In this document: piece by piece, positions 466 to 63,172 of the stretch | Layout: every line of letters begins with the position of its first letter | Numbering within the stretch: the stretch's first letter is position 1 | Notes under the pieces: model-generated | Told to the model about the DNA's origin: nothing | What the model saw: the letters and a program-made list of their open reading frames with translations, nothing else | Databases searched by the model: none | From: an uncultured Vagococcus sp. | GTDB taxonomy: Bacteria; Bacillota; Bacilli; Lactobacillales; Vagococcaceae | Reading direction: 5' to 3' | Assembly: GCA_965119435.1 (NCBI GenBank) | Contig: CBCPLQ010000014.1 | Span: 4,747-68,746 of the forward strand | DNA: 64,000 bases | Position numbers and translations under genes: made by a program

Positions 466-1953
466 ATGACAAAAAATATTGTTGCAGTTACAGCTTGTGC
501 AGCAGGGATTGCTCATACTTATATGGCCGCAGAGTCAATAGAAAGAGCAGCAAAAGAGTTAGGATACAATGTTAAGGTTGAAACAAACGGGGCTATTGGT
601 GCTGAAAATGTTTTAACGCATGAAGATATTGAAAACGCTGACTTAGTATTAATTGCTTCAGATATAAAAATTGATCCAATACGATTTTCAGGTAAGCCAT
701 TATTTGTAACTAAATCTATACCAGCGATTGAAGATGCATCAGCATTAATAGGAAAAGCATTTGAAGAAGCAGAAGTTTTTGGTAAAAAAGGTTCTAAAGT
801 TGGAAAAATTCAAATTGGTAACGACAAAGAAAAAGTAAACTTCTTTACACATATTATGAGTGGTATTTCTTATATGGTTCCAATGGTAATTGCAGCCGGA
901 CTTATTTTAACGATTGCTAATTTGTATGCGTTTCAAAAAGATGATTTAGGTCGTATTGTTGAGTGGGGATTCAATACAGACACTCAAATGGGTCTATTAA
1001 TGTCTAAGTTATTTTACGTAGGACAAGTTGGATTCAAATTAATGATTCCATTGTTTGCCGGTTTTGTTGCAAATTCAATTGCCGACAAACCAGCTATTGC
1101 GCCAGCTATGATTGGTGCCTACTTGGCTAATGATCCTGAATTTCTAGGAACTGAAGCAGGTGGAGGGTTCATTGGTGCGATTATTGTTGCCTTTATAGTA
1201 GGTTACATGGTTAAATACTTGAAAAAAATTAAATGGCCTAAGATTGTAATGCCAATTGTTCCGATTATGATTATTCCGTTCATTGCCACATTAACGATTA
1301 CATTAATTGTTATGTATGTGATTGGAAATCCGATTGCTTTAGGTATGGATGGTATGTATAGTGGATTAACGTCATTGAATGAAAATTATGCAGGAGCTCC
1401 AGTGATCATTGGTGCTATCTGTGGTGCGATGATTGGGTTTGACTTAGGTGGACCAGTAAATAAAACGGCTTTAGTGTTTGGGACAGCTATTTTTACAGAT
1501 ACTTTAACAAAATATGGTATTGAAAATGCGAACTTTGTACCAGGAACAGCAACACAAGCGGCAATCTCAGTTGCGCCATTAGGTGTTTGGTTAGCAACTA
1601 TCTTATTTAAAAAGAAATTTACAAAAGATGAAAAAGTAGCAGCATCAGCAGCCTTTGGTATGGGGATTGTTGGAGTAACTGAGGGTGCAATTCCGTTTGT
1701 TGCTTCAGACCCAATTCGAATGATTTTTGCCAACGTAACTGGTTCTGCTGTTGCTGGTGGTTTAGTTGCTGCAACAGGTTGTAAGTTTTACGGTGGTATA
1801 GGCTCCCCTCTTGGTACCTTCATTGGGTATATTGAACAGCCAATTCCATTTGTTACTTGGATTTTATGTGTATCAGCAGGTATTTTAACAACAGCATTAT
1901 TAATAGGGTTTACGAAACGGACACCCGAAGAAGCACTTGCAGTAGTGGATTAA
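466..1953 (+). CDS. PTS fructose/mannitol-family EIIBC component
   Basis: N-terminal TACAAGIAHTYMAAE (Fru-type IIB active-site Cys) followed by a polytopic IIC (FDLGGPVNK, GVTEGAIPF); SD gggag. Confidence 0.9.
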   Translation: MTKNIVAVTACAAGIAHTYMAAESIERAAKELGYNVKVETNGAIGAENVLTHEDIENADLVLIASDIKIDPIRFSGKPLFVTKSIPAIEDASALIGKAFEEAEVFGKKGSKVGKIQIGNDKEKVNFFTHIMSGISYMVPMVIAAGLILTIANLYAFQKDDLGRIVEWGFNTDTQMGLLMSKLFYVGQVGFKLMIPLFAGFVANSIADKPAIAPAMIGAYLANDPEFLGTEAGGGFIGAIIVAFIVGYMVKYLKKIKWPKIVMPIVPIMIIPFIATLTITLIVMYVIGNPIALGMDGMYSGLTSLNENYAGAPVIIGAICGAMIGFDLGGPVNKTALVFGTAIFTDTLTKYGIENANFVPGTATQAAISVAPLGVWLATILFKKKFTKDEKVAASAAFGMGIVGVTEGAIPFVASDPIRMIFANVTGSAVAGGLVAATGCKFYGGIGSPLGTFIGYIEQPIPFVTWILCVSAGILTTALLIGFTKRTPEEALAVVD

Positions 1954-1981
1954 AAAGATTTGAAAACTAGAGGAGGAAGTT

Positions 1982-2437
1982 ATGATGAACAAAGAAATTT
2001 TTAATGAAGAACACATTTTATTTGATACAACATCAACAACACAAGATGAGGCATTTAAGAGTATTGCGTCTTTTGCTTTTGAAAAAGGCTATGTTTCTGA
2101 TAGGGAAGAATTCTACAATGGCTTGAAAAAAAGAGAAGAAGAAGCGACAACTGGTTTTAAAGATCATATCGCGATTCCTCATAGTAAAAATAAATCAGTT
2201 TTAAAACCAGGAATGTTTTTAGTGAAATTTGCCAACGATATCCCTTGGAATGCCTTAGATCAAAAAGATGTAAAAGTTGGCTTTGCTTTAACCATTCCTG
2301 AAGAGGGAGCTACAGAGCATTTAAAACTATTGAGTTTAATTGCAAGGAAATTAATTGACAACCAATTTAGAGAAGGTATTTTAAATGAAGATGAGCCAAG
2401 TAAAATAGCTGAAATCATTGACGAAATATCATTTTAA
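1982..2437 (+). CDS. PTS fructose-family EIIA component
   Basis: REEEATTGFKDHIAIPH motif of PTS EIIA type 2; SD ggagg. Confidence 0.9.
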   Translation: MMNKEIFNEEHILFDTTSTTQDEAFKSIASFAFEKGYVSDREEFYNGLKKREEEATTGFKDHIAIPHSKNKSVLKPGMFLVKFANDIPWNALDQKDVKVGFALTIPEEGATEHLKLLSLIARKLIDNQFREGILNEDEPSKIAEIIDEISF

Positions 2438-2475
2438 AAAAAGGGGGCTGGGACAATAGTCCTAGTCTCTTTTTT
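2438..2475 (+). terminator. Intercistronic hairpin with T-tract (repeat family member)
   Basis: gggggctgggac-aata-gtcctagtctc followed by tttttt. Confidence 0.65.
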
Positions 2476-2498
2476 CAATAGACGGGGAGATATATTAT

Positions 2499-5111
2499 AT
2501 GAAGAAAAAAGTACATGTTATTCATCACACTCACTGGGATTTTGAATGGTATTTTACTAATCATGAATCTTTTGTTCAGCTATCGTATCATATGGATGAG
2601 GTAATGAGTGCTTTAGAGAACAATCAAATTGATTTTTATTTGCTAGACGGTCAATTGAGTATTGTAGATGAGTATTTACAAAGTCATTCAGAACAAAAAA
2701 TACGTTTAACAGAACTTGTAAAAGCGAAAAAACTATTTATAGGGCCTTGGTATACTCAAACAGACGAGTTAATTGTTGCTGGGGAATCCATTGTTCGAAA
2801 CCTTGATTTAGGCATTTCAATTGCGGAAGAACTAGGTGGTTATTTTAAAGCAGGGTATTTACCAGATTCGTTTGGACAGGGAAAAGACATGCCAAAAATT
2901 TATAATGGATTTGGACTTGATAAGACAGTCTTTTGGCGTGGTGTGCCTAATGATGTGACAGAAGATAGAGAGTTTATGTGGCAAAGTGAAGACGGCTCTA
3001 AAGTAATGGCCTCTAATATCAAAAATGGATACTTTGTAGGTGTGGGGTTGATTTATAGTGATGAATCCCAAGATTTAATGGATGTTATTGAAGAAGGAGC
3101 TACCTCTGATCAACTGGTTTTACCTGTTGGAGGAGATCAACGTTACATAGACTTTGACTTAAGAGAACGTATCTCACTTTATAATGATCAATTAGAAGAT
3201 TATGAATTAGTTGAGAGTAACTATGATTTGTTTTTTGATACGATAAAAGAAGATAGTTTAAAAACGGTTGAAGGAGAGTTTATTTCTAGCTCGGTTTCTA
3301 AGATTCATCGTTCTATTTACTCTTCTCGTTATGATCATAAATACATGAACGACAAAATTGAACGCCGTATGATTTACCAATTAGAACCATTAATGGTAAT
3401 GGCAGAAACTCAAGGGATTCCATATAAACAAGGCTTACTAGATAGAATTTGGAAATTATTAAGTAAAAATCAAGCTCACGATAGTGCAGGTGGGTGTAAC
3501 AGTGATAAAACGAATAAAATCATTATGGAAAGGTTCATTGAAGCCGATCAGTTGTCTTATTCGGCAGTAGATTATCTTACGAGAAAAATAGCAGAATCAA
3601 GAAAAAAAAGCGAAGAAAATGATCTGATTTTCTTTAATACCTTACCTTTTAAAAGAAAAGAACTAGTGAAATGCCAAGTATCATTGCCAAGTAACTCCTT
3701 TGAGCTATATTCAAATGGGGGAAAAGTAGATTATCAATTAATTAGTACAAGAAAAGAAAATTCAGGATCAATCAGAAGAAATCCTGATGAAATGGATCCT
3801 GAGAAGTTTTATTATATTCATGATTTATTAGTTGAAGTTGAGTTACCGTCACTAAACTTTACTGAGATTCAAGTGCTTGAAAAAGAGCAAGCGGAAATAG
3901 TTTCTAATGAAGCTAAAACTCACCGAATTGAAAACGACTATTATTCTGTTTCTTTTTCAGATGGCAATCTTCATTTAACTAATAAAGAAACAGAAGAAAA
4001 ATATACAGACTTTTTAACAATTGAAGACAGTGGCGATGAAGGAGATACTTATGACTATTCTCCACCCTATGAAGATCAAATTATTTCTTTAAACTTTAAA
4101 GGTGCCGAGGTTCTTGTAACTAACGGCTTACTACGAAATGAGATGAAACTATCAGGTGAATGGTTACTGTCTAAAGATTTAGACGAAAGAAGTAACAAAA
4201 TCCAAAGCGTAACTGTTTCTTATGAGCTAACTCTTTCATTGGATAGTAAAAACAATATGTTAGATTGTCACTTAACGATTGATAATCAAGCATTAGATCA
4301 TAGAATGCGAGCAGTTATTGATACTAAGGTAGCTAGCAAACAGTCCTTGACTAATACACCTTTTGGTTGTGTTAAAAGAGAAGTTGTGGATTCTCATATA
4401 ACTGATTGGAAAGAGTTAGGTTGGAGAGAAGAACCAACAACCATCTTCCCGATGTTAAATTATGTCAACTTACACAATGAAACAACTAGTGTAACGTGTT
4501 TTGCTAAAGGAATTAAAGAATATCAAATTGTTGGTCAAGACTATGAAAAAATAGCATTGACACTTTTTAGGTCAGTCGGATTTTTAGGAAGACCAGATTT
4601 AATTCGTAGACCAGGAATAGCTTCAGGTAATGAATTTAAATATGTTCCTACACCAGATAGTCAACTACTAGAAAAATTAACCTTTAAATTTATGATTCAA
4701 TTAGATAATCAATTTGATGAAGTCAAGGTAATGAAGGATTTTCAAAAAAGTGTTGTCTCTGTTCCCTTTTATCAAATACAAGAGATGAATCGTTTTACAA
4801 CTACTTTGAAATACTTTGTATCTAATCCACTAGAAACAAAAACTGCTCCTAAAGAATTAGTTGAAATTATTAGTGAAACAGTAGTTTTCAGTTCATTAAG
4901 AAAATCTAGATCAGAGACGGGCATTGAAGTAAGAGTATTTAATCCAAGTTTGGATAAATCTTGTAATGGAGGAAACATAGAGAGTTCTGAAAAAATGAGC
5001 TATCAACTAGTCAATTTAAAAGGTGACGCTTTAACTTCTGTTAATAATAGTGATAAGATAGAATTAGGAGACTTTAAGCCAGGTGAAATAAAAACACTTA
5101 GACTATTTTAG
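2499..5111 (+). CDS. GH38 alpha-mannosidase, MngB-like (phospho-alpha-mannosidase candidate)
   Basis: HTHWDFEWY Zn motif, LLDGQ, IGPWYTQTD, YLPDSFG nucleophile region, QAHDS; 870 aa. Confidence 0.9.
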   Translation: MKKKVHVIHHTHWDFEWYFTNHESFVQLSYHMDEVMSALENNQIDFYLLDGQLSIVDEYLQSHSEQKIRLTELVKAKKLFIGPWYTQTDELIVAGESIVRNLDLGISIAEELGGYFKAGYLPDSFGQGKDMPKIYNGFGLDKTVFWRGVPNDVTEDREFMWQSEDGSKVMASNIKNGYFVGVGLIYSDESQDLMDVIEEGATSDQLVLPVGGDQRYIDFDLRERISLYNDQLEDYELVESNYDLFFDTIKEDSLKTVEGEFISSSVSKIHRSIYSSRYDHKYMNDKIERRMIYQLEPLMVMAETQGIPYKQGLLDRIWKLLSKNQAHDSAGGCNSDKTNKIIMERFIEADQLSYSAVDYLTRKIAESRKKSEENDLIFFNTLPFKRKELVKCQVSLPSNSFELYSNGGKVDYQLISTRKENSGSIRRNPDEMDPEKFYYIHDLLVEVELPSLNFTEIQVLEKEQAEIVSNEAKTHRIENDYYSVSFSDGNLHLTNKETEEKYTDFLTIEDSGDEGDTYDYSPPYEDQIISLNFKGAEVLVTNGLLRNEMKLSGEWLLSKDLDERSNKIQSVTVSYELTLSLDSKNNMLDCHLTIDNQALDHRMRAVIDTKVASKQSLTNTPFGCVKREVVDSHITDWKELGWREEPTTIFPMLNYVNLHNETTSVTCFAKGIKEYQIVGQDYEKIALTLFRSVGFLGRPDLIRRPGIASGNEFKYVPTPDSQLLEKLTFKFMIQLDNQFDEVKVMKDFQKSVVSVPFYQIQEMNRFTTTLKYFVSNPLETKTAPKELVEIISETVVFSSLRKSRSETGIEVRVFNPSLDKSCNGGNIESSEKMSYQLVNLKGDALTSVNNSDKIELGDFKPGEIKTLRLF

Positions 5112-5123
5112 GATGTGAAAATC

Positions 5124-5915
5124 ATGCAAGAAGATATATTTTTATTGATTGAGTCCCATCGTTTAGAATTTACAGACGTAGAGCAAGTGGTAGCTAATTA
5201 TTTTTTAAGTAAAAAAGAACCGTTAACAATTGATAAATTGTCTAAAATATTATCAGTCTCCAAAGCATCTATTACACGATTTTGTAAGAAAATTGGTTTA
5301 AACAACTATAAAGAACTTATCTTTTTATACAACTTGTCTATGAGAAAAGGGACAGATGAAAAATTAGCTTCAACAGCGGTTACAAGCCTTTATCATGCTC
5401 TAGCAACGAGAAGTTCTGCTAACTTTGATGAAGAAAGCGTGGATAAATTCTGTCATTTAATTCATGAACATAAAATTATTCACTTTTTAGGAATGGGATT
5501 TAATTCCTACGCAGGAGCAGATTTTCAATTTAAATTTTCAAGGTTAGGCAAGTATGTCAGAGTTATCTCAGATCAAAACTCAATTAAACTATCAGCTGAG
5601 TTTGCAGAAAAAGATGAGTTAATTGTCGCTTGTAGTTTAAGGGGAATTGATGAGTCCATGTCCAAAGCTTTAGCCATTGCAAAAGAAAGGCATATTCCAG
5701 TTTTACTAATTACAGCTAATCAACAGTCACCACTCAAACAATTTGCTGAGGTGACCTTACTTGCTGCAACACTAACTCAGGAAGAGTCACTTGGTAATAT
5801 CTCACCACAAATTCCTATCTTAATTCAACAAGATATTGTTTATGAAAGATATATCCATCTCTATTCTGACTCTGTTCAAAAATGGTTACAAGCAGAGGCG
5901 ATACTAACCCAGTAA
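5124..5915 (+). CDS. MurR/RpiR-family transcriptional regulator
   Basis: HTH with VSKASITRFCKKIG plus SIS domain; ATG 5124 chosen over GTG 5115. Confidence 0.85.
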   Translation: MQEDIFLLIESHRLEFTDVEQVVANYFLSKKEPLTIDKLSKILSVSKASITRFCKKIGLNNYKELIFLYNLSMRKGTDEKLASTAVTSLYHALATRSSANFDEESVDKFCHLIHEHKIIHFLGMGFNSYAGADFQFKFSRLGKYVRVISDQNSIKLSAEFAEKDELIVACSLRGIDESMSKALAIAKERHIPVLLITANQQSPLKQFAEVTLLAATLTQEESLGNISPQIPILIQQDIVYERYIHLYSDSVQKWLQAEAILTQ

Positions 5916-5936
5916 ACAACTAAAGGAGCTATTAAT

Positions 5937-7310
5937 ATGTTAAAATTTCCAACTAATTTTTTATGGGGTGCAGCAGCGTCTGCTCCTCAAACAGAAGGAC
6001 ACGCATTACTAAGTGGTAAAAGTGCTACTACTTGGGATAAGTGGATTGAGTTAAACCCTGAGAAATTTAATAGTGGACAAGGTCCAAAAGATACATCAAA
6101 CGTCTACGATCTTTATGCCGATGATATTAAGCGCATGAAAGATATTGGCATGAACTCTTATCGGACGTCGATATCTTGGGCTAGACTCTTACCAGATGGG
6201 AAAACAGTTAATGAGGAAGCCGTTATTTTTTATCGTGATTATTTTGAAAAATTAAACGAAGCAGGTATAAAACCCATTATTAATTTATTCCACTTTGATA
6301 TGCCGTGGTGGTTAATGGAAAAAGGGGGCTGGGAAACTAGAGAGTCTGTTGAGGCATTTGCTTTTTATGCTAAAACTACTTTTGAATTATTTGGGGATCT
6401 AGTCGAAGAATGGACTACTTTTAATGAGCCTCTAGTTCATATTGAGTGTGGTTATTTATATGGTTTCCATTACCCAGCCATTGTTGATTTTAAAAAAGCT
6501 ATTCAAGTTGGTTACCATACATTGTTGGCTCATATTCTTTCTGTGAAAACCTTTAAGGAAGCCAATGTTAAAGGGCGTATCGGTATTATTTTAAATGTCA
6601 CACCAACCTATGCTCGGAGTGATTCTAAGGAAGATCTAGAGGCAAAGGAAGCTGCTGATTTACTTGTGATTAAGAGTTTCTTAGATCCTTGTGTGTTAGG
6701 TAAAGTGCCTCAAGCTTTAGTTGACTTACTGAAGGAACATAACCTAATACCTGTGACTGAAGTAGAGGATAAATTATTAATCAAGGAAAATCCAGTTGAT
6801 TTCATAGGAATTAACTATTATCAGCCAATGCGCGTCCAAGCGCCAGAGATTAAACAAGTACCAGCTTTAGCAACATCAGATTTGTTTGCTTCTTATGATT
6901 GGCCAGAAAAAAGAATTAACCCTTATCGTGGCTGGGAAATTTATCCCGAAGCGCTTTATGATGTCTCTATTATGATGAAAGAAGATTATCATAATATTCC
7001 GTGGTATGTTTCTGAAAATGGAATGGGAGTAGCAGATGAAGAGCGTTTCATGGATGAGTCTGGGATGATTCAGGATGATTACCGAATTGAATTTATGGAA
7101 GAACATTTAACACAATTGTACAAAGGAATTGAGGCGGGGAGTAACTGTTTTGGTTATCATACGTGGACTTTTGTCGATTGTTGGTCATGGTTAAATGGTT
7201 ATCGTAATCGTTATGGCTTTTACCGTGTTGATTTAGAAAATAATTTTAAACGAACGATGAAAAAAAGTGGTATTTGGTACAAAGAGTTAAGTCAAAATAA
7301 CGGATTTTAA
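5937..7310 (+). CDS. GH1 6-phospho-beta-glycosidase (GmuD/BglA-like)
   Basis: FLWGAAASAPQTEG start, TFNEP acid/base and VSENG nucleophile motifs. Confidence 0.9.
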   Translation: MLKFPTNFLWGAAASAPQTEGHALLSGKSATTWDKWIELNPEKFNSGQGPKDTSNVYDLYADDIKRMKDIGMNSYRTSISWARLLPDGKTVNEEAVIFYRDYFEKLNEAGIKPIINLFHFDMPWWLMEKGGWETRESVEAFAFYAKTTFELFGDLVEEWTTFNEPLVHIECGYLYGFHYPAIVDFKKAIQVGYHTLLAHILSVKTFKEANVKGRIGIILNVTPTYARSDSKEDLEAKEAADLLVIKSFLDPCVLGKVPQALVDLLKEHNLIPVTEVEDKLLIKENPVDFIGINYYQPMRVQAPEIKQVPALATSDLFASYDWPEKRINPYRGWEIYPEALYDVSIMMKEDYHNIPWYVSENGMGVADEERFMDESGMIQDDYRIEFMEEHLTQLYKGIEAGSNCFGYHTWTFVDCWSWLNGYRNRYGFYRVDLENNFKRTMKKSGIWYKELSQNNGF

Positions 7311-7328
7311 CATGAAAGAGGTAAAACA

Positions 7329-8195
7329 ATGGGATTAGTTGTCTTTGACATAGGTGGAACAGCAGTAAAACATGGCTTTTGGTCAGAGGAAACACTAACT
7401 GATCAAGGACAGTTTCAGACACCTCAAACATTTGCAGAAATGAAAGAAGAAATGTTAAAAGTTGTCTCAACTCATCAAGATGAGCAAATTGAAGGAATCG
7501 CAATTAGTTCTCCTGGAGCAGTGAATGTGAAGGAAAGACGCATTGATGGATTAAGTGCTGTTTCTTATCTACATGACTATCCCATATTTGATGAGCTGGA
7601 GAACTTATTTGAGCTACCAGTTACAATTGAAAATGATGCCAACTGTGCAGGTATTGCTGAAATTGAACTAGGGGCAGGAAAAGAGAAGGAACATGTTGTT
7701 TTTCTAGTGTTAGGTACTGGTGTGGGCGGTTCTATTTTTATCAACCGCAAGCTTTACAAAGGGGCCCACTTATTTGGTGGTGAGTTTGGACTCCTTGTTA
7801 GTGCATCAGATAAACCGTTGAGTAATGTGGGATCAATTGTAAAAGTAGCTAATAAATACGAAGCTGAAACTGGAAAAAAAGTAGATGGTAAACTAATATT
7901 TGACCTTCTTGAAGCTCAGGACTCTTTAGCTGTGGAGTTAGTCGACGAGATGTATTGGGCAATTGCCCATGCACTCTATAATGTCCAAGTATCCATTGAC
8001 CCAGAACTGATAATTATTGGTGGAGGAGTCTCTAAGCGAAATGAAGTTTCAGAGGAAATTGGTAAGAGGTTGAAAGAACTTCTTGATAAACGATCAGTAC
8101 CGGACATCATGCCAGATATTTCAACTTGTCACTTTTCAAATGATGCTAATTTAATCGGAGCAGCTATGAATTTTACTAGTTTACAAAATAAATAA
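7329..8195 (+). CDS. ROK-family sugar kinase without the Cys-Zn motif (BglK-like)
   Basis: FDIGGT, ENDANCA, GTGVGG and GEFG motifs; no CxCGxxGC after GEFG. Confidence 0.85.
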   Translation: MGLVVFDIGGTAVKHGFWSEETLTDQGQFQTPQTFAEMKEEMLKVVSTHQDEQIEGIAISSPGAVNVKERRIDGLSAVSYLHDYPIFDELENLFELPVTIENDANCAGIAEIELGAGKEKEHVVFLVLGTGVGGSIFINRKLYKGAHLFGGEFGLLVSASDKPLSNVGSIVKVANKYEAETGKKVDGKLIFDLLEAQDSLAVELVDEMYWAIAHALYNVQVSIDPELIIIGGGVSKRNEVSEEIGKRLKELLDKRSVPDIMPDISTCHFSNDANLIGAAMNFTSLQNK

Positions 8196-8200
8196 AAAAG

Positions 8201-8240
8201 AAAGCATTCAAGAAGTGAAAATCTTTCTTGAATGCTTTTT
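8201..8240. terminator. Bidirectional intrinsic terminator
   Basis: aaagcattcaagaa / ttcttgaatgcttt inverted repeat between convergent genes. Confidence 0.8.
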
Positions 8241-8245
8241 ATCAT

Positions 8246-9247
8246 TTAATTAGTTAGTATATTGTACTCAGTTCTATAGGTCTTAGTTACCCCTGTTTGC
8301 AAGTCAATATTACCCCACTTTGGGTGATTAACGATATCTGGTAATTCTTGGGTTTCAATCGCAAGGCCTAGTTCGGAGGACATGTTTTGACCATTTACTT
8401 TAAAGTTATCATTGAATCCTGTTGTCGAAAATAGAACAACAGCATCTCTATCAGAGGAAATCCTTAAGGTTCGCCCACTAGTAGGTTCGTATAAAATCAC
8501 TTGAGGATTTTCTTTTTTTAATAAATAAGCATCATCAATTCCGTTTTCTATCTGAGATAGAGAGTCACCTATTTTTTTAGAGGTGGAAAAGTCATATCCA
8601 GTACCTTCTAATGAAGTAATTTTACCTGTAGGAATATTATCCATATCAGTTTCAATTTTTTCCTGACTATTAATGAAAAGTTCATGATTTTTAATCTTTT
8701 CTTTTGCATTACCTGAAAGATTAAAATAAACATGATTTGTTGGGTTAACAATAGTCGCTGCTTCAGAGACTACACTGGTTGTCATGACAACAGATTCTGT
8801 CGTTAACTCATATGTATTAATTACGTGAATTGGCCCAGGGTAGCCAGATTTTGTGTCAGTTAATGAAAAGATAACTTTAACCGAATCGGAGGTTTCTTCA
8901 AGCGAATAATCCCAAAATTGGCACCACCAGCCCTGACTACCACCATGAATATGATGATCGCCATTATTTTTTTCTAAGGGAATCCCATTCCACTTTGCAT
9001 CTTTAATTCGGCCAGCTACAGGTCCAACTAAAGCGCCAAATTGAGCAGGGTCTTTTAAAATACTTTCAGGTGTATCAAGAGAGAGTAAAATATTTTCTTT
9101 CAACCCTTTCTTATCTGGGACAATAAAATTATGCCATCTTGCTCCAAAGTTAAGAAAAGTTGCTTGGAGGTTTCCATTTTCTAAAGTAATGTAGTCAATG
9201 TTTGTTTTACTATCTTTTTGAATGGAGTAGGTCATTTTATTTTTCAT
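8246..9247 (-). CDS. galM: Aldose 1-epimerase (mutarotase) of the maltose operon
   Basis: [23 protein letters not shown] and LAIETQ motifs. Confidence 0.9.
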
Positions 9248-9899
9248 TCCAAACAGAAGTAAGGTAAGTTAAAGAGAGATGACTTGTATCAGGAACAATG
9301 GCAATATCATGCCCCAAGTCATCCTTTTCACCCACACCAACAGGAAGAGCGCCACTGGCTTTAATAGCTGTTATACCAGCTTTTGCATCCTCTACACCGA
9401 TTGCTTCTTTAATTGAAATATTCACCGCTTTAGCAGCTGCTAAGAAAATATCGGGAGCTGGTTTTCCAGCAGCTAAAGATGCTGGATCAACGATCGCATC
9501 GAAGAAATGACTAATTTCCATCTTATCTAATAAAAGGGGACCATTCTTACTAGCAGATGCTAAGGCAATACGGATATCCGCCGCTTTTAATTCTTCTAAT
9601 AATTCTAAAATCCCAGGGTAGATATCTTTAGGTGAGATAGCTTGAATCATCTCTACATAGTTTTTATTTTTTTCTTTCGCAAGTTCAGCAAATTTTTCAG
9701 CACTAATCTCACTAGATTTATGCCCATGTTCTAAAATTAACGTTAATGAATCTTCACGACTAACGCCTTTTAATTTTTCGTTAAACTCGCGGTCAATCTC
9801 AATGCCTAAATCATCAGCTAATTTTTTCCACGCTAAGAAATGGTACTCAGCTGTGTCTGTAATAACACCATCTAAATCAAATAAAACACCTTTGAACAT
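9237..9899 (-). CDS. pgmB: Beta-phosphoglucomutase
   Basis: HAD motif [27 protein letters not shown]; located next to a GH65 gene. Confidence 0.95.
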
Positions 9900-10001
9900 T
9901 GTAAAACTTCCTTTCTATTTTCAAAAATGAGAGTGGACTTATCTGTCACACTCTCGAGTTATTATTAGTTTAAGATAAAAAATTATGTTTGTCTAGACAA
10001 G

Positions 10002-12266
10002 TTATTTATTTAGAGCAACCATTATTGAATCTTTTATGTGTTGTGTTTTTCCATATACTTCAACGTCAAGAGCTTCACCACTTAATAAAGTAATTGTCAC
10101 ATTTTCGTCGATTAGAATGTGTAGTAAACGACCACGGTAGCTAATATGAAAAGCGTATTTACTCCATTTTTTAGGTAAGAAAGGAGCAAAGCTTAATGTT
10201 TCGTTATAAGTTTTCATTTGAGCGAACCCTTGAACAATGGCTAACCAACTACCTGTCATTGATGTAATGTGTAGTCCGTCCTCGGTATCGTTGTTATAGT
10301 TATCTAAATCTAAACGAGCTGTTCGTTGATACATTTCAATTGCTTTATCCTCCATACCAAGCTCTGCAGCTAAGATAGAGTGGATACATGGAGATAATGA
10401 AGATTCATGAACAGTCATTGGTTCATAGAAGTCAAAGTTTTTACGTTTTTCTTCCATAGTGAATTCGTCATTAAAGAAGTAAATCCCTTGTAAGACATCT
10501 GCTTGTTTGATGAAACAAGAACGTAAGATATGATCCCATGACCAGTTTTGATTTAATGGGACGTCACTTGCAGCTAAATCAGAAACAGGCATTAAGTCTT
10601 TATCTAAGAAGGTATCATGTTGAACGAATACACCTAATTCATCATCTTTAGGGAAATACATATTAGCAATAATATCCTCCCAATGACTGATTTCTTCTGT
10701 TGATAGTTCAACCGATGTTTCAGATTGAAATTTTTTGTAGTTATCTAATGTATATTTCAAGACCCAAACGGCAATATAGTTTGTATACCAGTTATTATTA
10801 ACATTGTTTTCGTATTCGTTAGGACCAGTCACACCATGCATCATATATTTTTGATTGCGTTTAGAATAGTGGATGCGGTCAGCCCAAAAACGAGCAATTT
10901 CAGATAAAACTTCAAGGCCATCACCTTTAATATAAGACGTATCTCCTGTGTAGTTAGTATAGTTGTAAATAGCATAAGCAATCGCACCGTTACGGTGAAT
11001 TTCTTCAAACGTAATTTCCCACTCATTATGACACTCAACACCAGTGAAAGTTACCATAGGGTAAAGAGCCCCTTTTAGGCCTTGTTGGCGAGCGTTATGT
11101 TGTGCTTGTGGTAATTGATTGTGACGGTATTTTAATAAGTTTTCCGTGACACTTGGATCAGCTAACGCTAAGTATAGAGGAACAGCGTATGCTTCTGTAT
11201 CCCAATAAGTTGCACCGCCATATTTTTCACCAGTGAAGCCTTTTGGACCAATATTTAATCGGTCATCTTCTCCGTAATAAGTTGAGAACAATTGAAATAA
11301 GTTAAAACGAATGCCTTGTTGTGCTTCATCATCACCTTCGATAACCACATCAGCAAGTTCCCAACGTTTTTCCCAAGCTTGCGAGTGTGCTGTTTTTAAG
11401 TCTTCAATAGAAGAAGCATTTATCGTTTTCATGATTGTTTTGGCTACTTCTAACTGTGTTTCCTCTTTCATGTCACGACTTGTTGTAATGATAACTTTTT
11501 TATCTAATGCAATAGTATCCCCACAAGAAACATTGAACGTAAAACTTTCTGTTGCAAGAAAACTTGAAGTGTAGGATTCACTTGTGTAAGAACCAATAGC
11601 AGTATTTTCCATCAATGCAGTGATAGTGAACTGTTCAATACCAAAGTTATTTGGTACAGTTTTTGCTGTGACAAAGTTAGTACCAACTGCACATTCTTCC
11701 CAGAACATCTCTTCGTAATTACTATCTTCGTTTTGGACATTATTGTCTAGTTTAGAAACAACTTTGATATTCCCATGACCTTCAAGAACTGTTGCTTTAA
11801 AAGAAATAACACCAAGCTCTTTGGTAGTGATACTTAGAAATCGTTCAAATGAAAAAGCAACTTTCATATTTTCTTCTTCTATAGTAAAGCGGCGTGACAA
11901 GATGCCATGTTCCATATCAAGTTCTTGGTAAAAATCTGTTGCCTGTTGAGTGGCTAAGTCAATTTTAGTGTCATTAATATATAAATCCATTGCGATAAAG
12001 TTAATGGCATTGATAACTTTTCCAAAATATTCTGGGTAACCATTTTTCCACCAACCTACACGAGTTTTGTCAGGATACCAAACACCAGCTATATATGTTC
12101 CTTGATGATGATCACCACTGAAGCCTTCTTCAAAGTTACCTCGCATTCCCATGTAACCATTTCCAGTACTTGTTAATGATTCTTGTAAGCGAACGTCACT
12201 TTGATGTAATTCGTTTGTAGCTATTTTCCATGGATTGATTTCGAATAAACGTTTTAAATGTTTCAC
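10002..12266 (-). CDS. malP: Maltose phosphorylase (GH65)
   Basis: [35 protein letters not shown]; GTG start. Confidence 0.93.
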
Positions 12267-12300
12267 AAAAAGTATCCCCCTTGATTAATTTTATAAATCA

Positions 12301-12329
12301 ATCATAAACGCAAACGTTTGCGAAATCAA
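12301..12329 (-). promoter_or_regulatory. SigA promoter of malP with the MalR operator in its spacer
   Basis: Minus strand TTGATT-17-TATGAT; the spacer contains CGCAAACGTTTGCG. Confidence 0.7.
12309..12322. promoter_or_regulatory. MalR (LacI-family) operator
   Basis: Perfect 14-bp palindrome CGCAAACGTTTGCG matching the Firmicute MalR/MdxR operator. Confidence 0.85.
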
Positions 12330-12395
12330 TAGAATAGTTTAGACATTTTTATTTTGCTACCGGTAACATCTTTAATACATTATACTTAATACATC

Positions 12396-12445
12396 TTTAC
12401 AAATATAAATAGAAAAGTTATAATTTAATTACGAAACCGATTGCG
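12396..12445 (+). promoter_or_regulatory. SigA promoter of malT plus second MalR operator
   Basis: TTTACA(12396)-17-TATAAT(12419); degenerate operator CGAAACCGATTGCG at 12432-12445. Confidence 0.75.
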
Positions 12446-12479
12446 TTAAACGCTAAAGGAAAAGGAAAAGGTGGAAGAG

Positions 12480-14660
12480 ATGAAAAAATTATTAAGTTTT
12501 GAGTTTTGGCAAAAATTTGGTAAAGCTCTAATGGTTGTTATTGCTGTTATGCCTGCTGCTGGATTAATGATTAGTATAGGTAAGACAATACCACTAATGA
12601 ATCCAAACATGGGAATGTTGGTAACAACAGGTGGTGTGATAGAAAATATTGGTTGGGCAATTATTAGTAACCTTCATTTATTATTTGCATTAGCAATTGG
12701 TGGTAGTTGGGCAAAAGAAAAAGCCGGAGGAGCATTTGCTGCTGGGATTGCTTTTGTACTGATTAACCGTATCACAGGAGCCATTTTTGGTGTAACTGGA
12801 GATATGTTAAATGATCCGGAGAGCTTTACTCATACTTTATTCGGTACTAAAATTATGGTTAAAGGATTCTTTACAAGTGTGTTAGAAGCACCGGCTCTTA
12901 ATATGGGAGTGTTTGTTGGTATCATTGCTGGTTTTGTTGGAGCGATGGCTTTTAACAAATACTACAATTACCGAAAATTACCAGAAGCCTTATCGTTTTT
13001 TAATGGTAAACGATTTGTTCCTTTTGTTGTTATTTTCTGGTCATTAATTGTTTCGTTAATCCTTGCAATTGTTTGGCCATTTATTCAATCAGGAATTAAT
13101 AACTTTGGTTTGTGGATTGCCACTTCACAAGATACTGCACCAATCTTAGCGCCATTTTTATATGGAACATTAGAGCGTCTGTTATTACCGTTTGGCTTAC
13201 ACCATATGTTAACCATTCCTATTAACTATACGCAACTTGGTGGAACCTATGAGATTCTTTCTGGTGCTCAAGCTGGTACGATGGTTTATGGACAAGATCC
13301 ATTATGGTTAGCGTGGGCAACTGACTTAGTTAATTTAAAGGGTGCTGGGAATATGGATCAATACAATATGGTATTATCTAACTGGACACCTGCTCGTTTT
13401 AAAGTAGGTCAAATGATTGGCTCAACGGGTACTTTAATGGGACTGGCTTATGCCATGTACCGCAATGTTGATTTTGATAAAAAACATCAATATAAATCAA
13501 TGTATTTCTCTGCTGCCCTAGCAGTATTTTTAACAGGGGTAACAGAACCTTTAGAGTTTATGTTTATGTTTGTTGCGATGCCACTTTACGGTGTGTATGC
13601 GGTCATTCAAGGATTAGCCTTTGCAATGGCAGATATTATTAACTTGCGTGTTCATTCATTTGGTAGTATTGAATTACTAACAAGGTTACCAATAACGATT
13701 AAAGCTGGACTAGGTATGGATATGGTTAACTTTGTTATTTGTACTATTGTGTTTGCAGTAGGAACTTATTTCATTGCTAATTTCTTAATTAAGAAATTTA
13801 ACTACGCAACACCAGGTAGAAATGGTAATTACGAAGTAGATGGTTCTCAAGAAGAGTCATCAACTTCAGCTGAAGCAAACGCATCTGGTATGGATCAACA
13901 AGTGATTGATATTATCAACCTACTAGGTGGTAAACAAAATATTTCTGATGTAGATGCGTGTATGACGCGTTTAAGAGTCTCGGTTAAAAATAGAGATGAA
14001 GTTGGTTCTGAAGAAGCTTGGAAGAAAGCTGGAGCCATGGGACTAATCATTAAAGATAACGGAGTTCAAGCCGTATATGGACCAAAAGCAGATATATTAA
14101 AATCTGACATTCAAGATGCATTGGATTCAGGTGTTGAGATTCCAAAGAGTCATGTGGAAGAAGCAAGTGCGGTAAAAACAGAAACAACTAGTCATTTTTT
14201 TAATAAACAGGTAGATGTCTTGTCAGTCGCTCAAGGTGAAGTCATTAAGATTGAGCAAGTTAAAGATGAAGTCTTTTCTCAAAAAATGATGGGAGATGGT
14301 TTTGCGGTTGACCCAACTGGTAGTGAAGTTGTTTCTCCAATCTCAGGTACAGTAGTGACTGTTTTTCCTTCAAAACACGCTATTGGCTTAATGAGTGATG
14401 ACGGGATTGAGATTTTAGTACATATGGGACTTGATACAGTTCAAATGAAAGAAATAGCCTTTGATGTGGTGGTTAAAGAAGGAGATAAAGTTGCAGCAGG
14501 TCAACTTTTAGCGAATGCTAATTGGGAAGCTGTTAGGTCAGAGGGTAAGGGAACAACAATAGTTGTAATCTTTACGAATGGTGATAAGATAGAATCTCTA
14601 GAGATGACACAATTAGGCATGCAGGATAAAGCAATAAAGATAGGTCAATTAAAGATTTAA
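12480..14660 (+). CDS. malT: PTS maltose-specific EIICBA
   Basis: Starts MKKLLSFEFWQKFGKAL; IIB motif DACMTRLR; IIA motif HMGLDTV; maltose locus context. Confidence 0.9.
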   Translation: MKKLLSFEFWQKFGKALMVVIAVMPAAGLMISIGKTIPLMNPNMGMLVTTGGVIENIGWAIISNLHLLFALAIGGSWAKEKAGGAFAAGIAFVLINRITGAIFGVTGDMLNDPESFTHTLFGTKIMVKGFFTSVLEAPALNMGVFVGIIAGFVGAMAFNKYYNYRKLPEALSFFNGKRFVPFVVIFWSLIVSLILAIVWPFIQSGINNFGLWIATSQDTAPILAPFLYGTLERLLLPFGLHHMLTIPINYTQLGGTYEILSGAQAGTMVYGQDPLWLAWATDLVNLKGAGNMDQYNMVLSNWTPARFKVGQMIGSTGTLMGLAYAMYRNVDFDKKHQYKSMYFSAALAVFLTGVTEPLEFMFMFVAMPLYGVYAVIQGLAFAMADIINLRVHSFGSIELLTRLPITIKAGLGMDMVNFVICTIVFAVGTYFIANFLIKKFNYATPGRNGNYEVDGSQEESSTSAEANASGMDQQVIDIINLLGGKQNISDVDACMTRLRVSVKNRDEVGSEEAWKKAGAMGLIIKDNGVQAVYGPKADILKSDIQDALDSGVEIPKSHVEEASAVKTETTSHFFNKQVDVLSVAQGEVIKIEQVKDEVFSQKMMGDGFAVDPTGSEVVSPISGTVVTVFPSKHAIGLMSDDGIEILVHMGLDTVQMKEIAFDVVVKEGDKVAAGQLLANANWEAVRSEGKGTTIVVIFTNGDKIESLEMTQLGMQDKAIKIGQLKI

Positions 14661-14662
14661 AG

Positions 14663-14701
14663 AAAAAAAGAGGCTTGGCTATTAGAGCCGGCCTCTTTTT
14701 T
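14663..14701 (+). terminator. Intercistronic hairpin (repeat family member)
   Basis: aaaagaggcttggct-atta-gagccggcctcttttt. Confidence 0.65.
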
Positions 14702-14720
14702 ATAGAATGGAGATAAGAAA

Positions 14721-15545
14721 ATGAAGTTTATATCTTTAAATACGCATAGTTGGATAGAGAAGGAACCACTTGAAAAGCTAAAAGAAATAGGTGATTTTAT
14801 CATCAAGCATGACGTTGAAATGATCGCTCTTCAAGAAGTAAACCAAAAAATAATAGCGGGTATTAGTGAAACAGACGATATGTTTTGCCCGTTAATTAAA
14901 GCTTCAGCTCCAATTAGAGATGACAACTATGCGAGATTACTTGTGGCGTACCTAAAAGAGCAAGGTGAAACTTATTATTGGGGATGGACATGTAGCCATA
15001 TTGGATATGATATTTATGAAGAAGGGTCAGCTATTTTATCTAAATATCCTTTTGAAGCTAAGAGTTTACTCGTTTCGCCGACACAGGAAATGACGGATTA
15101 TCATACAAGACAAATATTATTTGCTCATTTTAAAGAGTTTGATATACCTTTAACGTTTGCAAGTTGTCACTTTTCTTGGTGGTCAGAAAATGAATTAGAA
15201 GGTTTTCAATACGAATGGCAAAAAATGTTAGATGAAATTCAGTTAATTGATAATCAAGTGTTACTTTTTGGGGATTTCAATGCCCCATCTCATATCAAAA
15301 ACGAAGGCTATGAACTCGTGATGGAGACATTCGTAGATAGTTTTGATTTAGCAAAAGAAAAAAAAGGCTCTTTTACAGTTGATCAAATTATTGATGGTTG
15401 GAGTGAGAACACTGAAAAATTAAGAATTGATTTTGGATTTGTTTTAAAACCAGTGGATGTGTTATCATATCAAGTGATTTTCAATGATGTAATAGGTCCC
15501 GTCGTTAGTGACCATTTTGGTATTATGATTGAGACAGCATTGTAG
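14721..15545 (+). CDS. mapP: Maltose 6'-phosphate phosphatase (EEP family)
   Basis: LNTHSW, ALQEV, GDFN, RIDF, VSDHFG; directly after malT as in enterococci. Confidence 0.85.
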   Translation: MKFISLNTHSWIEKEPLEKLKEIGDFIIKHDVEMIALQEVNQKIIAGISETDDMFCPLIKASAPIRDDNYARLLVAYLKEQGETYYWGWTCSHIGYDIYEEGSAILSKYPFEAKSLLVSPTQEMTDYHTRQILFAHFKEFDIPLTFASCHFSWWSENELEGFQYEWQKMLDEIQLIDNQVLLFGDFNAPSHIKNEGYELVMETFVDSFDLAKEKKGSFTVDQIIDGWSENTEKLRIDFGFVLKPVDVLSYQVIFNDVIGPVVSDHFGIMIETAL

Positions 15546-15559
15546 AATGGGGGAATAAA

Positions 15560-16573
15560 ATGAGCGTGACTATCAAAGATGTAGCTAAAGAAGTTGGGGT
15601 AGCTCCGTCAACTGTTTCTAGGACGTTGAAAGATCATCCTAGTATTTCAAGTGAAACGAAAGAAAAAGTTCGCAAAGCAATGGTGAAGCTTGGCTATGTA
15701 CCTAATGTTTCAGCTCAAAATTTAGCGAATAAGTATGTGAATACGATTGGTGCTATTTTGCCGGTGATTGGTTCAAAAGAGAGGAAGAGTAATCCTTTTT
15801 ATTTAGAAATTATCACAGCAATGAATGAAGAAGCTAGTCAACAAAAAGTTACATTATCTATAGCTTCTGGAAAAACTCAGCAAGAGCTATTAGAAAATGT
15901 TCAATTGATGTATCGTCAAAAAAGAGTGGATGGGTTTATTATGTTATATGTAGAAGAGGATGATATTGTTTTAGATTATCTACTAGAAAATAATGTTCCC
16001 TTTACAATGATAGGACAACCCTATAAGTTTCATAATGAGGCCAGCTGTGTGGATAATGACAATCAGCTCTTAGGCTTTACTGCTACACAGCATTTGGTTG
16101 ATAAAGGACATGAAAAAATTGTTTTTGTAACAAATAATCAACAAGAAAACTTTTTTCGTGAGCGATATTATGGTTATCAAAAAGCAATGACAGAGAATAA
16201 GTTATCTTCCCTTCCTGTGATGCCTCTTATTCAGCCAGGTGATTTTATAAAGTTTGACGAAATTTTAAAAGAAAAAGAAATTTCTGCCTGTATAGCTATT
16301 GATGATATGTTTGCTTTGAGACTGATACAGATGATAAATTTATCTGGCTTTAGAGTACCTGATGATATTTCAGTTATTAGTTTTAATAACTCTATTTTTA
16401 CTAGCTTATTGCATCCATACATCACATCAATTGATGTTAATACGGCACAACTTGGTAAAGTTGCTGTTCAAGAATTTTTATCTCAACTAAAGAATCCAGA
16501 GGAGATTAAAAAGCGAGTGATTATTCCTCATAAATTGATCGAAAATGAAACTGTATTAAACATCATCCAATAA
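15560..16573 (+). CDS. malR: LacI-family maltose repressor
   Basis: TIKDVAKEVGVAPSTVSR HTH; operators present in the nearby divergent promoter. Confidence 0.85.
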   Translation: MSVTIKDVAKEVGVAPSTVSRTLKDHPSISSETKEKVRKAMVKLGYVPNVSAQNLANKYVNTIGAILPVIGSKERKSNPFYLEIITAMNEEASQQKVTLSIASGKTQQELLENVQLMYRQKRVDGFIMLYVEEDDIVLDYLLENNVPFTMIGQPYKFHNEASCVDNDNQLLGFTATQHLVDKGHEKIVFVTNNQQENFFRERYYGYQKAMTENKLSSLPVMPLIQPGDFIKFDEILKEKEISACIAIDDMFALRLIQMINLSGFRVPDDISVISFNNSIFTSLLHPYITSIDVNTAQLGKVAVQEFLSQLKNPEEIKKRVIIPHKLIENETVLNIIQ

Positions 16574-19338: not shown

Positions 19339-20136
19339 ATGAAAACTTATTCACCAATGTTTGAACAGATTGATAACTCAATTAAAAAAAAGGTCGATTT
19401 AATCGATAACCACTTTGCTCGTTATGCAGTAAGAGCAATGCTTGCTTGCCTATTTCTAACGCTAGGAACCGCAGTTGCTTTTTGGATCGCTATTCAAGGA
19501 GAAAGTATTGTTCATGGTTTAGGGAAGATGTTGTATGCATTTATGTTTAGTTGGTCATTAGTAATGATTCTTTATATGAATGCTGAACTCGGTACTTCCA
19601 ATATGCTTTATGTAACCGTAGGTGTTTACCGAAAAAAACTGAACGTATCAAAAGCGTTAAAAATTTTATTTACGTGTGTATTCTTTAACTTGATTGCCGG
19701 TATTATTTTTGCTTATTTTATTTCTTTAACTGGACCTTTCTTAAATATGGAAGCTAATAATTATATGTTTGAAGCAATTGCAGCTAAACTAGATAAATCA
19801 ACTCTTCAAATTGTAGTTGAGGGAGCATTTGCTAATATTGTTGTTAATACTGCCGTATTGGTCAGTTTGAGAATGAAGGATGACGGTGGTAAAGTACCAG
19901 CTATTATTTTTATTATCTTTATCTTTGCATTTTTAGGTTATGAGCATGTTATCGCAAATTTCCCAGCTTTCTCTTTAGCATTTTTTGCTTCAGGTGGAAC
20001 TATTGCCAATATGACAGCTGGTGCCGTGATTCATAATCTGGTTTTTGCCTTTATTGGTAATTATATTGGTGGAGGCTTAGTTATTGGCCTTGTCTACGCT
20101 TGGTTAGACAAACCCAACACACCATATTTAGATTAA
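19339..20136 (+). CDS. Formate/nitrite transporter family channel
   Basis: AELGTSN, N-x-x-G segments, GYEHVIAN, GNYIGG. Confidence 0.9.
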   Translation: MKTYSPMFEQIDNSIKKKVDLIDNHFARYAVRAMLACLFLTLGTAVAFWIAIQGESIVHGLGKMLYAFMFSWSLVMILYMNAELGTSNMLYVTVGVYRKKLNVSKALKILFTCVFFNLIAGIIFAYFISLTGPFLNMEANNYMFEAIAAKLDKSTLQIVVEGAFANIVVNTAVLVSLRMKDDGGKVPAIIFIIFIFAFLGYEHVIANFPAFSLAFFASGGTIANMTAGAVIHNLVFAFIGNYIGGGLVIGLVYAWLDKPNTPYLD

Positions 20137-20167
20137 TTAAAAAACTGATAATGAATGGAGTGATTTT

Positions 20168-36250: not shown

Positions 36251-39693
<3,443 letters not shown>

Positions 39694-63129: not shown

Positions 63130-63172
63130 TCAAACCTCTCCTTAAACTCTATGTTATTTGATAGGTATATAC

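Follow-up and report, generated by a model that had tools for sequence, protein, structure and literature searches.

A six-gene Vagococcus operon joining a fructose-family phosphotransferase system and an MngB-like GH38 to a GH1 glycosidase and a ROK kinase: a candidate pathway for fragments of the N-glycan core

In Escherichia coli, the MngA/MngB pair sets a fructose (Fru)-family phosphotransferase system (PTS) beside a cytoplasmic glycoside hydrolase of family 38 (GH38); the PTS phosphorylates O6 of the mannosyl residue, and GH38 releases mannose-6-phosphate. A 64-kb stretch of DNA from an uncultured Vagococcus sp. (contig CBCPLQ010000014.1 of assembly GCA_965119435.1; the whole stretch is called the window here) carries at positions 466 to 8195 an operon in which a PTS of this family adjoins a GH38 enzyme of the same broad subfamily, and the two appear to share the MngA/MngB logic. 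Unlike the E. coli system, however, the window operon has a separate gene for enzyme IIA, an RpiR-type regulator with a SIS domain rather than the GntR-type MngR, and two extra enzymes, a GH1 glycosidase and a kinase of the ROK family. What substrate would call for all of these? A first-pass annotation, made from the sequence alone, had proposed stepwise degradation, in which the PTS phosphorylates the substrate, GH38 releases mannose-6-phosphate, the kinase phosphorylates the disaccharide that is left, and GH1 cleaves it. Comparative genomics supports this model as a prediction, because the GH1 is of the SPy1599 type and has a phosphate pocket, because GH1-ROK pairs also occur without a PTS, because N-glycan enzymes are neighbors of the operon in relatives, and because the ROK kinase has a BglK-like signature. 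On balance, we favor the reading that the operon imports and splits an alpha-mannosyl-beta-mannoside from the N-glycan core, most likely Man-alpha1,3(or 6)-Man-beta1,4-GlcNAc (GlcNAc, N-acetylglucosamine). The features concerned are the following.

342 to 355, + strand: candidate RpiR operator, the imperfect palindrome TGAAAAAAATATCA, 124 nt before the start of the IIBC gene.
466 to 1953, + strand: PTS enzyme II with Fru-type EIIB and EIIC (IIBC), 495 aa (PF02302 and PF02378); predicted substrate uptake and phosphorylation.
629 to 643, + strand: perfect match, TTGAAAACGCTGACT, to the catabolite-responsive element (cre) consensus within the IIBC gene; a lead only.
1982 to 2437, + strand: PTS EIIA of the fructose/mannitol type (EIIA-2; IIA), 151 aa (PF00359, TIGR00848, HIAIPH motif).
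2499 to 5111, + strand: MngB-like GH38 alpha-mannosidase, cytoplasmic, 870 aa (three GH38 Pfam domains); predicted 6-phospho-alpha-mannoside hydrolase.
5115 to 5915, + strand: RpiR/MurR-family regulator, 266 aa, GTG start (PF01418, HTH_6, and PF01380, SIS).
5937 to 7310, + strand: GH1 of the SPy1599 clade, 457 aa (PF00232); predicted 6-phospho-beta-glycosidase, proposed 6-phospho-beta-mannosidase.
7329 to 8195, + strand: ROK kinase, 288 aa (PF00480); proposed beta-glycoside (Man-beta1,4-GlcNAc) 6'-kinase.
8199 to 8240, no strand assigned: predicted bidirectional intrinsic terminator hairpin with a 17-bp stem, between the ROK gene and the convergent galM.

All six open reading frames (ORFs) lie tightly packed on the + strand in the order IIBC-IIA-GH38-RpiR-GH1-ROK, with gaps of 28, 61, 3, 21, and 18 nt, and Pfam and NCBIfam assignments bear out the co-oriented cluster described in the first-pass annotation. 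Scans for sigma-70 promoters and terminators inside the operon gave no signal above chance. The hairpin at 8199 to 8240 (dG -20 kcal/mol, z -5.6), with an A-run on the near side and a T-run on the far side, closes the operon against the convergent galM-pgmB-malP maltose locus. The 61-nt gap between IIA and GH38 contains a weak hairpin followed by a T-tail (2444 to 2463) that resembles a terminator; through partial termination or RNA processing it may set the ratio of transporter to enzymes.

The PTS is of the Fru family: IIBC matches TIGR01427 at 227 bits (cutoff 158) and TIGR00829 at 105 bits, also above cutoff, its IIB active-site context reads VTACAAGIAHTYMAAE, and IIA matches PF00359 at 121 bits and TIGR00848 at 122 bits, again above cutoff. 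Against the NCBIfam equivalog models for FruA, Frv, and MngA, IIBC falls far short of every cutoff; for the MngA model (NF007293, cutoff 763), IIBC reaches 249 bits and the separately encoded IIA 75 bits. The GH38 protein contains the N-terminal (PF01074), middle (PF09261), and C-terminal (PF07748) domains of its family, and the metal-binding and catalytic residues H10, H12, D14, D123, H327, and D328 are invariant in the GH38 alignment. Its metal-binding motif, HHTHWDFEW, begins at residue 9 and so leaves no signal peptide; GH1 and ROK likewise lack one. The only NCBIfam model that GH38 matches is that of the mannosylglycerate hydrolase MngB (NF007331), at 772 bits, below the cutoff of 1138, and the GH38 structures of non-phospho, N-glycan-active enzymes match it at 235 bits (Enterococcus faecalis) and 194 bits (Streptococcus pyogenes). 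The nearest homologue, in Vagococcus carniphilus, is 83% identical, which agrees with an origin of the window in this genus. Relatives from Photobacterium, Aeromonas, and the Enterococcus moraviensis group score about the same against the MngB model (723 to 763 bits), and the group is therefore a distinct sister subfamily of MngB and not simply a set of distant orthologues. A GH38 of the MngB subfamily beside a Fru-family PTS therefore points to a 6-phospho-alpha-mannoside as the GH38 substrate and to mannose-6-phosphate and an unphosphorylated aglycone as the products.

What could act on that aglycone? GH1 matches PF00232 at 409 bits and has its catalytic glutamates in place, the acid/base in NEP (TTFNEP) and the nucleophile in ENG (YVSENGM). 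Its best matches in the Protein Data Bank (PDB), at 434 to 452 bits, are 5NAV/5NAQ, 5FOO, and 4B3K, the last being SPy1599 of S. pyogenes. The first-pass annotation had called the protein a phospho-beta-glycosidase, for which the family models alone are insufficient: the best NCBIfam model is that of the non-phospho beta-glucosidases (BGL), below its cutoff. The C-terminal pocket and the closeness to SPy1599 do support the assignment. The pocket motif is WSWLNGYRNRYG in the window protein and WSWLNAYKNRYG in SPy1599, and both follow the layout S...K/R.N.R.Y, with Ser where non-phospho beta-glucosidases have Glu (DNFEW), followed by a basic residue and Tyr, which we take to be the phosphate-pocket arrangement of LacG and BglA-type enzymes. 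The motif is kept in the 37 GH38-linked GH1 proteins that match the pattern. In a maximum-likelihood tree, the window GH1 and its relatives fall in a single SPy1599-type clade, the window protein within a well-supported subclade of 38 members, 16 of them from Fru-PTS/GH38 contexts and 7 from other N-glycan contexts; among 80 metagenomic loci collected from the GH1 side, 15 combine GH1 with GH38, GH125, GH85, or GH20. SPy1599 itself is recorded as a 6-phospho-beta-glucosidase in a review table (PMC9075583) and is encoded in an S. pyogenes operon with the N-glycan-active SpGH38, GH125, and the GH84 enzyme Spy1600 (PMC2815779). The second GH1 of the window, at 38260 to 39693, is BglH-like, follows a beta-glucoside PTS, and is separated from the operon GH1 by a branch length of more than 2. 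In Carnobacterium gallinarum, a GH1 homologue with 72% identity lies in the order IIC(lactose [Lac] family)-LacI-GH29 alpha-fucosidase-GH1 (L084:5307-10383; labels of this form denote loci of our survey), which suggests that the clade may also serve a fucosylated beta-glycoside.

The ROK protein matches PF00480 at 135 bits, and BglK is its best NCBIfam model (NF042998), at 157 bits against a cutoff of 550. Its best PDB matches are the pneumococcal ROK 2GUP (156 bits), which we take to be SP_2142, and then Listeria BglK, 4HTL (121 bits). It had been described earlier as a Cys-less ROK; the zinc motif CxCGxxGC is indeed absent, and two Cys residues are present elsewhere in the protein. In addition, the His of the ExGH motif is replaced by Leu (GEFGL instead of GEFGH), and both 4HTL and 2GUP have GEFGY and no zinc cysteines. 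Glucokinases retain this His together with CxC; the Zn-less N-acetylmannosamine (ManNAc) kinase 5NCK (Fusobacterium NanK) retains the His. Loss of the cysteines as proof of a disaccharide kinase is thus ruled out, 5NCK being Zn-less and a monosaccharide kinase, and loss of the ExGH His is, from these alignments, the more specific shared trait. The signature lacking both His and CxCG, as in BglK and 2GUP, is found in 51 of 52 GH1-adjacent ROK proteins.

A scan of genome contigs with the GH38 alignment gave 80 loci with 10-kb flanks that were analyzed by tblastn and ORF clustering; counts of co-occurrence refer to those 65 Fru-PTS/GH38 loci whose downstream flank was long enough. Apart from the five other operon genes, no family is conserved around GH38 in the 80 loci, and RpiR lies directly 3' of GH38 in 71 of 81 loci. 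GH1 and ROK are both present, completing the gene set, in 31 of the 65, nearly always as RpiR-GH1-ROK; ROK occurs without GH1 in 10 and GH1 without ROK in 3. The six-gene order recurs in 31 other species-level genomes, a clustering far beyond chance. Carriers of the full operon include the lactic acid bacteria Vagococcus, Enterococcus pallens and raffinosus, Lactococcus petauri, Lacticaseibacillus zeae, Tetragenococcus, and Pediococcus, as well as Bacillus cereus, Virgibacillus, Oceanobacillus, Clostridium perfringens, sardiniense, and neonatale, and Fusobacteria.

The accessory genes of representative loci, assigned by Pfam, bear on the nature of the substrate. A secreted GH85 endo-beta-N-acetylglucosaminidase is encoded directly 3' of RpiR in Brochothrix campestris and Enterococcus villorum (L031, L021), and a GH125 alpha-1,6-mannosidase is found in 11 loci, among them those of the E. 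moraviensis group, which read GH38-IIC(Lac family)-RpiR-GH125-GH1 with no ROK nearby and with a GH1 65 to 73% identical to that of the window. GH84 stands beside the module in Tetragenococcus, and GH20 follows GH38 in Thaumasiovibrio. The N-glycan core is suggested as the substrate because it is the sole structure with an alpha-Man-beta-Man linkage to which the company of GH85, GH125, and GH20 points.

Two further arrangements speak to the role of the GH1-ROK pair. Twelve PTS-GH38-RpiR loci of Vibrionaceae encode a GH2 enzyme with beta-mannosidase Ig domains and have neither GH1 nor a BglK-like ROK; one of the GH2-type loci (L070) holds a ROK, of the classical His/Zn type, together with a GH20. 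From these gene contents, GH2 is taken to be a non-orthologous displacement of GH1-ROK, and because the Vibrionaceae loci handle the aglycone left by GH38 with a GH2 enzyme of the beta-mannosidase type, that aglycone is predicted to be an unphosphorylated beta-mannoside. Those Vibrionaceae loci with the GH2 gene (L061-L076) also carry an AraC regulator and often a porin. In Companilactobacillus (L083, L167), the order is GH125-GH38(SpGH38 type)-MsmK-regulator-GH85-two ATP-binding cassette (ABC) permeases-substrate-binding protein-DUF624-histidine kinase-AraC-type response regulator-GH1-ROK. Judged by its genes, this locus, of the pneumococcal type, is complete for high-mannose N-glycans and has no PTS, with GH1-ROK at the place where a beta-mannosidase would be needed; in the absence of a PTS, a 6-phospho-specific GH1 would therefore need a glycoside kinase. 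In Vibrio fluvialis (L085), a GH1-ROK pair stands alone with no PTS or GH38 nearby, and the pair is thus a mobile one. Because a GH1 with a phosphate pocket would not act on an unphosphorylated aglycone and because ROK pairs with GH1 also where there is no PTS, ROK is the candidate for the kinase that phosphorylates again, the more so as its signature is that of BglK, the only family of beta-glycoside kinases to have been characterized. A MupG-like gene (DUF871, the 6-phospho-N-acetylmuramidase family) follows ROK or stands with GH1 in two Fusobacteria loci (L056:8633-10626, L060:13998-15978) and in L092, L120, L141, and L151; it may encode a second phospho-glycosidase of these modules.

From the observed gene set, families, order, signatures, neighborhoods, and upstream motif we infer every substrate and reaction of the following scheme. 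Endo-beta-N-acetylglucosaminidases and exo-mannosidases, the organism's own or those of a neighbor, would provide the fragment, which the Fru-family EIIBC/EIIA would import and, in the manner of MngA, phosphorylate on its terminal alpha-mannose (at O6). The MngB-like GH38 would then free mannose-6-phosphate and leave unphosphorylated Man-beta1,4-GlcNAc, the BglK-like ROK would use ATP to phosphorylate O6 of the beta-mannosyl residue, and the SPy1599-type GH1 would split the 6'-phospho-disaccharide into a second mannose-6-phosphate and GlcNAc. Both products of GH1 would enter central metabolism through enzymes encoded elsewhere. RpiR would bind the palindrome TGAAA-N4-TTTCA, which lies some 120 nt before the operon, and be released when its SIS domain senses a sugar phosphate.

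The evidence for this last step comes from the upstream regions. RpiR has the two domains that define its family, an N-terminal HTH_6 (PF01418, 41 bits) and a C-terminal SIS (PF01380, 50 bits), and the latter suggests a sugar-phosphate inducer. A 14-bp palindrome (TGAAA-N4-TTTCA; consensus TGAAAATATTTTCA) precedes the first operon gene in 45 of the 65 loci, in most cases at positions -114 to -130 relative to the start codon, against a background of 0.012 per kb in the same loci. The enrichment is somewhat circular in that the pattern used (TGAAA.[AT]A[AT][AT].[TC]CA) had been drawn up by eye from the very sequences in which it was counted. Its positional conservation from Firmicutes to Vibrionaceae is free of that circularity, and the copy at 342 to 355 is the only match to the pattern in the 64-kb window. 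The palindrome tracks RpiR and not the type of PTS: it precedes GH38 in those Lac-IIC/GH125 loci that have RpiR, precedes the GH2, porin, and rpiR genes in Vibrionaceae, and is absent where RpiR is absent, as in Fusobacteria and the GntR-regulated Tetragenococcus loci. It is thus a candidate RpiR operator. A 32-nt A/T-rich near-perfect palindrome at 348 to 379, which overlaps it, was rejected as an operator, being found in none of 64 related upstream regions. The window contains 40 cre-like matches against a mean of 31.7 in shuffled sequences, which is not above chance; the match at 629 to 643 is a possible CcpA roadblock, and the cre-like sequences that follow the promoter in relatives were noted by visual inspection alone.

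Several observations weigh against an N-glycan substrate. The SPy1599-type GH1 clade is not N-glycan-specific: of the 80 clade members from metagenomes, some 38 (50 to 53% identity) adjoin a IIC of the Lac or cellobiose (Cel) family with no mannosidase, and the sole activity recorded for the clade is that of a 6-phospho-beta-glucosidase, cleavage of a mannoside being a prediction from sequence. Among Zn-less ROK proteins is the ManNAc kinase 5NCK, which makes the kinase signature a hint and not a diagnostic trait. Neither GH1 nor ROK is found in 21 of the 65 PTS-GH38-RpiR loci, so that a third of them have no candidate nearby for cleaving a beta-mannoside, and halophilic Bacillaceae are among the carriers of the operon. 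The 64-kb window itself contains no endoglycosidase, manA, or nagAB, and co-location with an endoglycosidase, GH125, and an N-glycan ABC importer, as in the carbohydrate-processing locus of Streptococcus pneumoniae, was not found within it. The PF01832 protein encoded at 25322 is a peptidoglycan hydrolase fused to an M23 domain. As a sign of N-glycan foraging, the first-pass annotation had also pointed to a glycosylasparaginase at the window end. The gene at 62179 to 63129 (- strand) does belong to the Asparaginase_2 family; the argument is a weak one, the gene lying 54 kb from the operon, where it follows a PepV-like dipeptidase gene (both within 62179 to 64000) and adjoins an Opp-like peptide ABC transporter. 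The N-glycopeptide cluster alf-2 of Lactobacillus casei has the order pepV-asnA2, asnA2 encoding a glycosylasparaginase (PMC6960285), and the adjacency in the window, which recalls it, is at most a hint.

Some of these observations would fit an alpha-mannosyl-beta-glucoside better, for example Man-alpha1,3-cellobiose, as in xanthan side chains, or a part of another microbial or plant glycan. After the action of GH38, ROK would then be a true BglK working on cellobiose and GH1 a 6-phospho-beta-glucosidase, the activity on record for its clade (PMC9075583). The rank of BglK as top NCBIfam model for ROK, the many clade members with a Lac/Cel-family IIC, and the presence of the operon in environmental halophilic Bacillaceae agree with this. 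The accessory genes of relatives, however, are of the N-glycan type (GH85, GH125, GH20, GH84, and the beta-mannosidase-type GH2), and the conserved neighbors include none of the enzymes that act on xanthan, cellulose, or mannan (PL8, GH88, GH5, GH9, GH26, GH94), which makes a beta-glucoside unlikely in our view. A different division of labor would have ROK act as an ordinary hexokinase on mannose, GlcNAc, or glucose, with the GH1 substrate phosphorylated at its beta-linked residue by this PTS or by another one. A GH1 and a ROK are known as a pair from Bacillus subtilis gmuD/gmuE, which counts for such a role, as do the existence of Lac-IIC-GH1-ROK loci (L107, L108, L114), the monosaccharide specificity of the Zn-less ROK 5NCK, and the E. 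moraviensis-type loci, where GH1 has no ROK nearby. We give this arrangement, too, only a small chance of being correct, since no PTS is at hand in L083/L167 or beside the stand-alone pair of L085, displacement by GH2 implies that the GH38 product is unphosphorylated, and the sugar-contacting His lost from the GH1-linked ROK proteins is kept by the ROK of the GH2-type locus and by monosaccharide ROK proteins.

The possibility raised in the first-pass annotation, that the operon serves mannosylglycerate (or a similar osmolyte) as E. coli MngAB does, would make GH1-ROK an unrelated beta-glucoside module joined to it by chance. MngB is the only NCBIfam model matched by GH38, the PTS belongs to the same family as MngA, halophiles carry the operon, and a glycerate kinase is encoded 12 kb downstream. 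GH38 and the PTS, however, fall well short of the equivalog cutoffs for MngB and MngA and belong to a distinct subfamily, the regulator is RpiR and not a GntR-type MngR, GH1-ROK stands in fixed order in 31 genomes of several bacterial families, and N-glycan enzymes adjoin the operon in relatives. The glycerate kinase at 20168 to 21310 is real (TIGR00045, 358 bits) and gives no support: it lies beyond the maltose locus, is directly preceded by a formate/nitrite (FNT) channel with which it forms a pair (19339 to 21310), and has no counterpart in any of the 80 related loci. We therefore regard a mannosylglycerate system as very improbable and retain an N-glycan core fragment as the favored substrate.

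Outside the operon, the convergent neighbor is an Enterococcus-type maltose locus (8246 to 16573), with galM, beta-phosphoglucomutase, and a GH65 maltose phosphorylase on the - strand; divergent from these lie a glucose-family PTS IIBC-IIA (TIGR02003), a 274-aa ORF with no NCBIfam match, and a LacI-type regulator. A LevR-like sigma-54 activator (Sigma54_activat, PRD, and EIIA-Man) is encoded in 48760 to 51585, with further ORFs after it.

How does the operon compare with known systems for N-glycans and beta-glycosides? With the loci of S. pyogenes and S. pneumoniae it appears to share cytoplasmic enzymes that finish imported N-glycan cores: its GH1 belongs to the clade of SPy1599 and has the same phosphate-pocket motif, and among ROK proteins of solved structure the closest to its own is the pneumococcal 2GUP. 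Those loci, however, import through ABC transporters and use a non-phospho GH38 and GH125, whereas the window operon has a Fru-family PTS and an MngB-like GH38. A ROK is part of the S. pneumoniae N-glycan locus (PMC5215778), and a 2018 paper notes that the model of N-glycan use in S. pneumoniae has no candidate for cleavage of Man-beta1,4-GlcNAc (PMC6160142). The BglK/BglA route of Klebsiella and Listeria likewise pairs a ROK lacking both zinc and His with a phospho-specific GH1 and phosphorylates a disaccharide before cleaving it; in contrast, the substrate proposed here is a beta-mannoside ending in GlcNAc, and the pair forms part of a PTS/GH38 operon. Unlike the MngAB system, the relatives of the window operon associate with N-glycan enzymes and not with glycerate metabolism. 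The GH2, GH5_18, and GH130 routes (Bacteroides, Xanthomonas, Cutibacterium/Bifidobacterium) serve the same proposed step, in which the core loses its final, beta-linked mannose, but act directly on the unphosphorylated disaccharide, whereas the route proposed here would cost one ATP and yield mannose-6-phosphate directly. In a full-text search of the literature, neither this operon nor any 6-phospho-beta-mannosidase or Man-beta1,4-GlcNAc kinase was found to have been described. The parts thus belong to known kinds, an MngAB-like PTS/GH38 and a BglK/phospho-GH1 pair; their combination and the proposed substrate are new.

A wider reading is possible, although we hold it with less than even confidence. 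ROK would be the first Man-beta1,4-GlcNAc 6'-kinase and GH1 the first 6-phospho-beta-mannosidase, together supplying the missing last step of N-glycan core degradation in Firmicutes, and the same would hold for SPy1599 and the ROK genes in the two streptococcal loci, those of S. pyogenes and S. pneumoniae. On this reading, the Fru-family PTS would also be the first to import an N-glycan core oligosaccharide, and the operon would belong to a dedicated RpiR regulon, marked by TGAAA-N4-TTTCA, that extends from Firmicutes to Vibrionaceae. If this is true, a kinase and a phospho-glycosidase would fill the beta-mannoside gap in models of N-glycan use by Gram-positive bacteria, would explain two orphan enzymes, the conserved ROK and the SPy1599 GH1, and would add to the GH2, GH5_18, and GH130 solutions one that depends on a PTS and spends ATP. 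Because the operon is widespread in lactic acid bacteria associated with the gut, food, and fish, in clostridia, and in Fusobacteria, it may be of importance to the foraging of glycoproteins in animal hosts.

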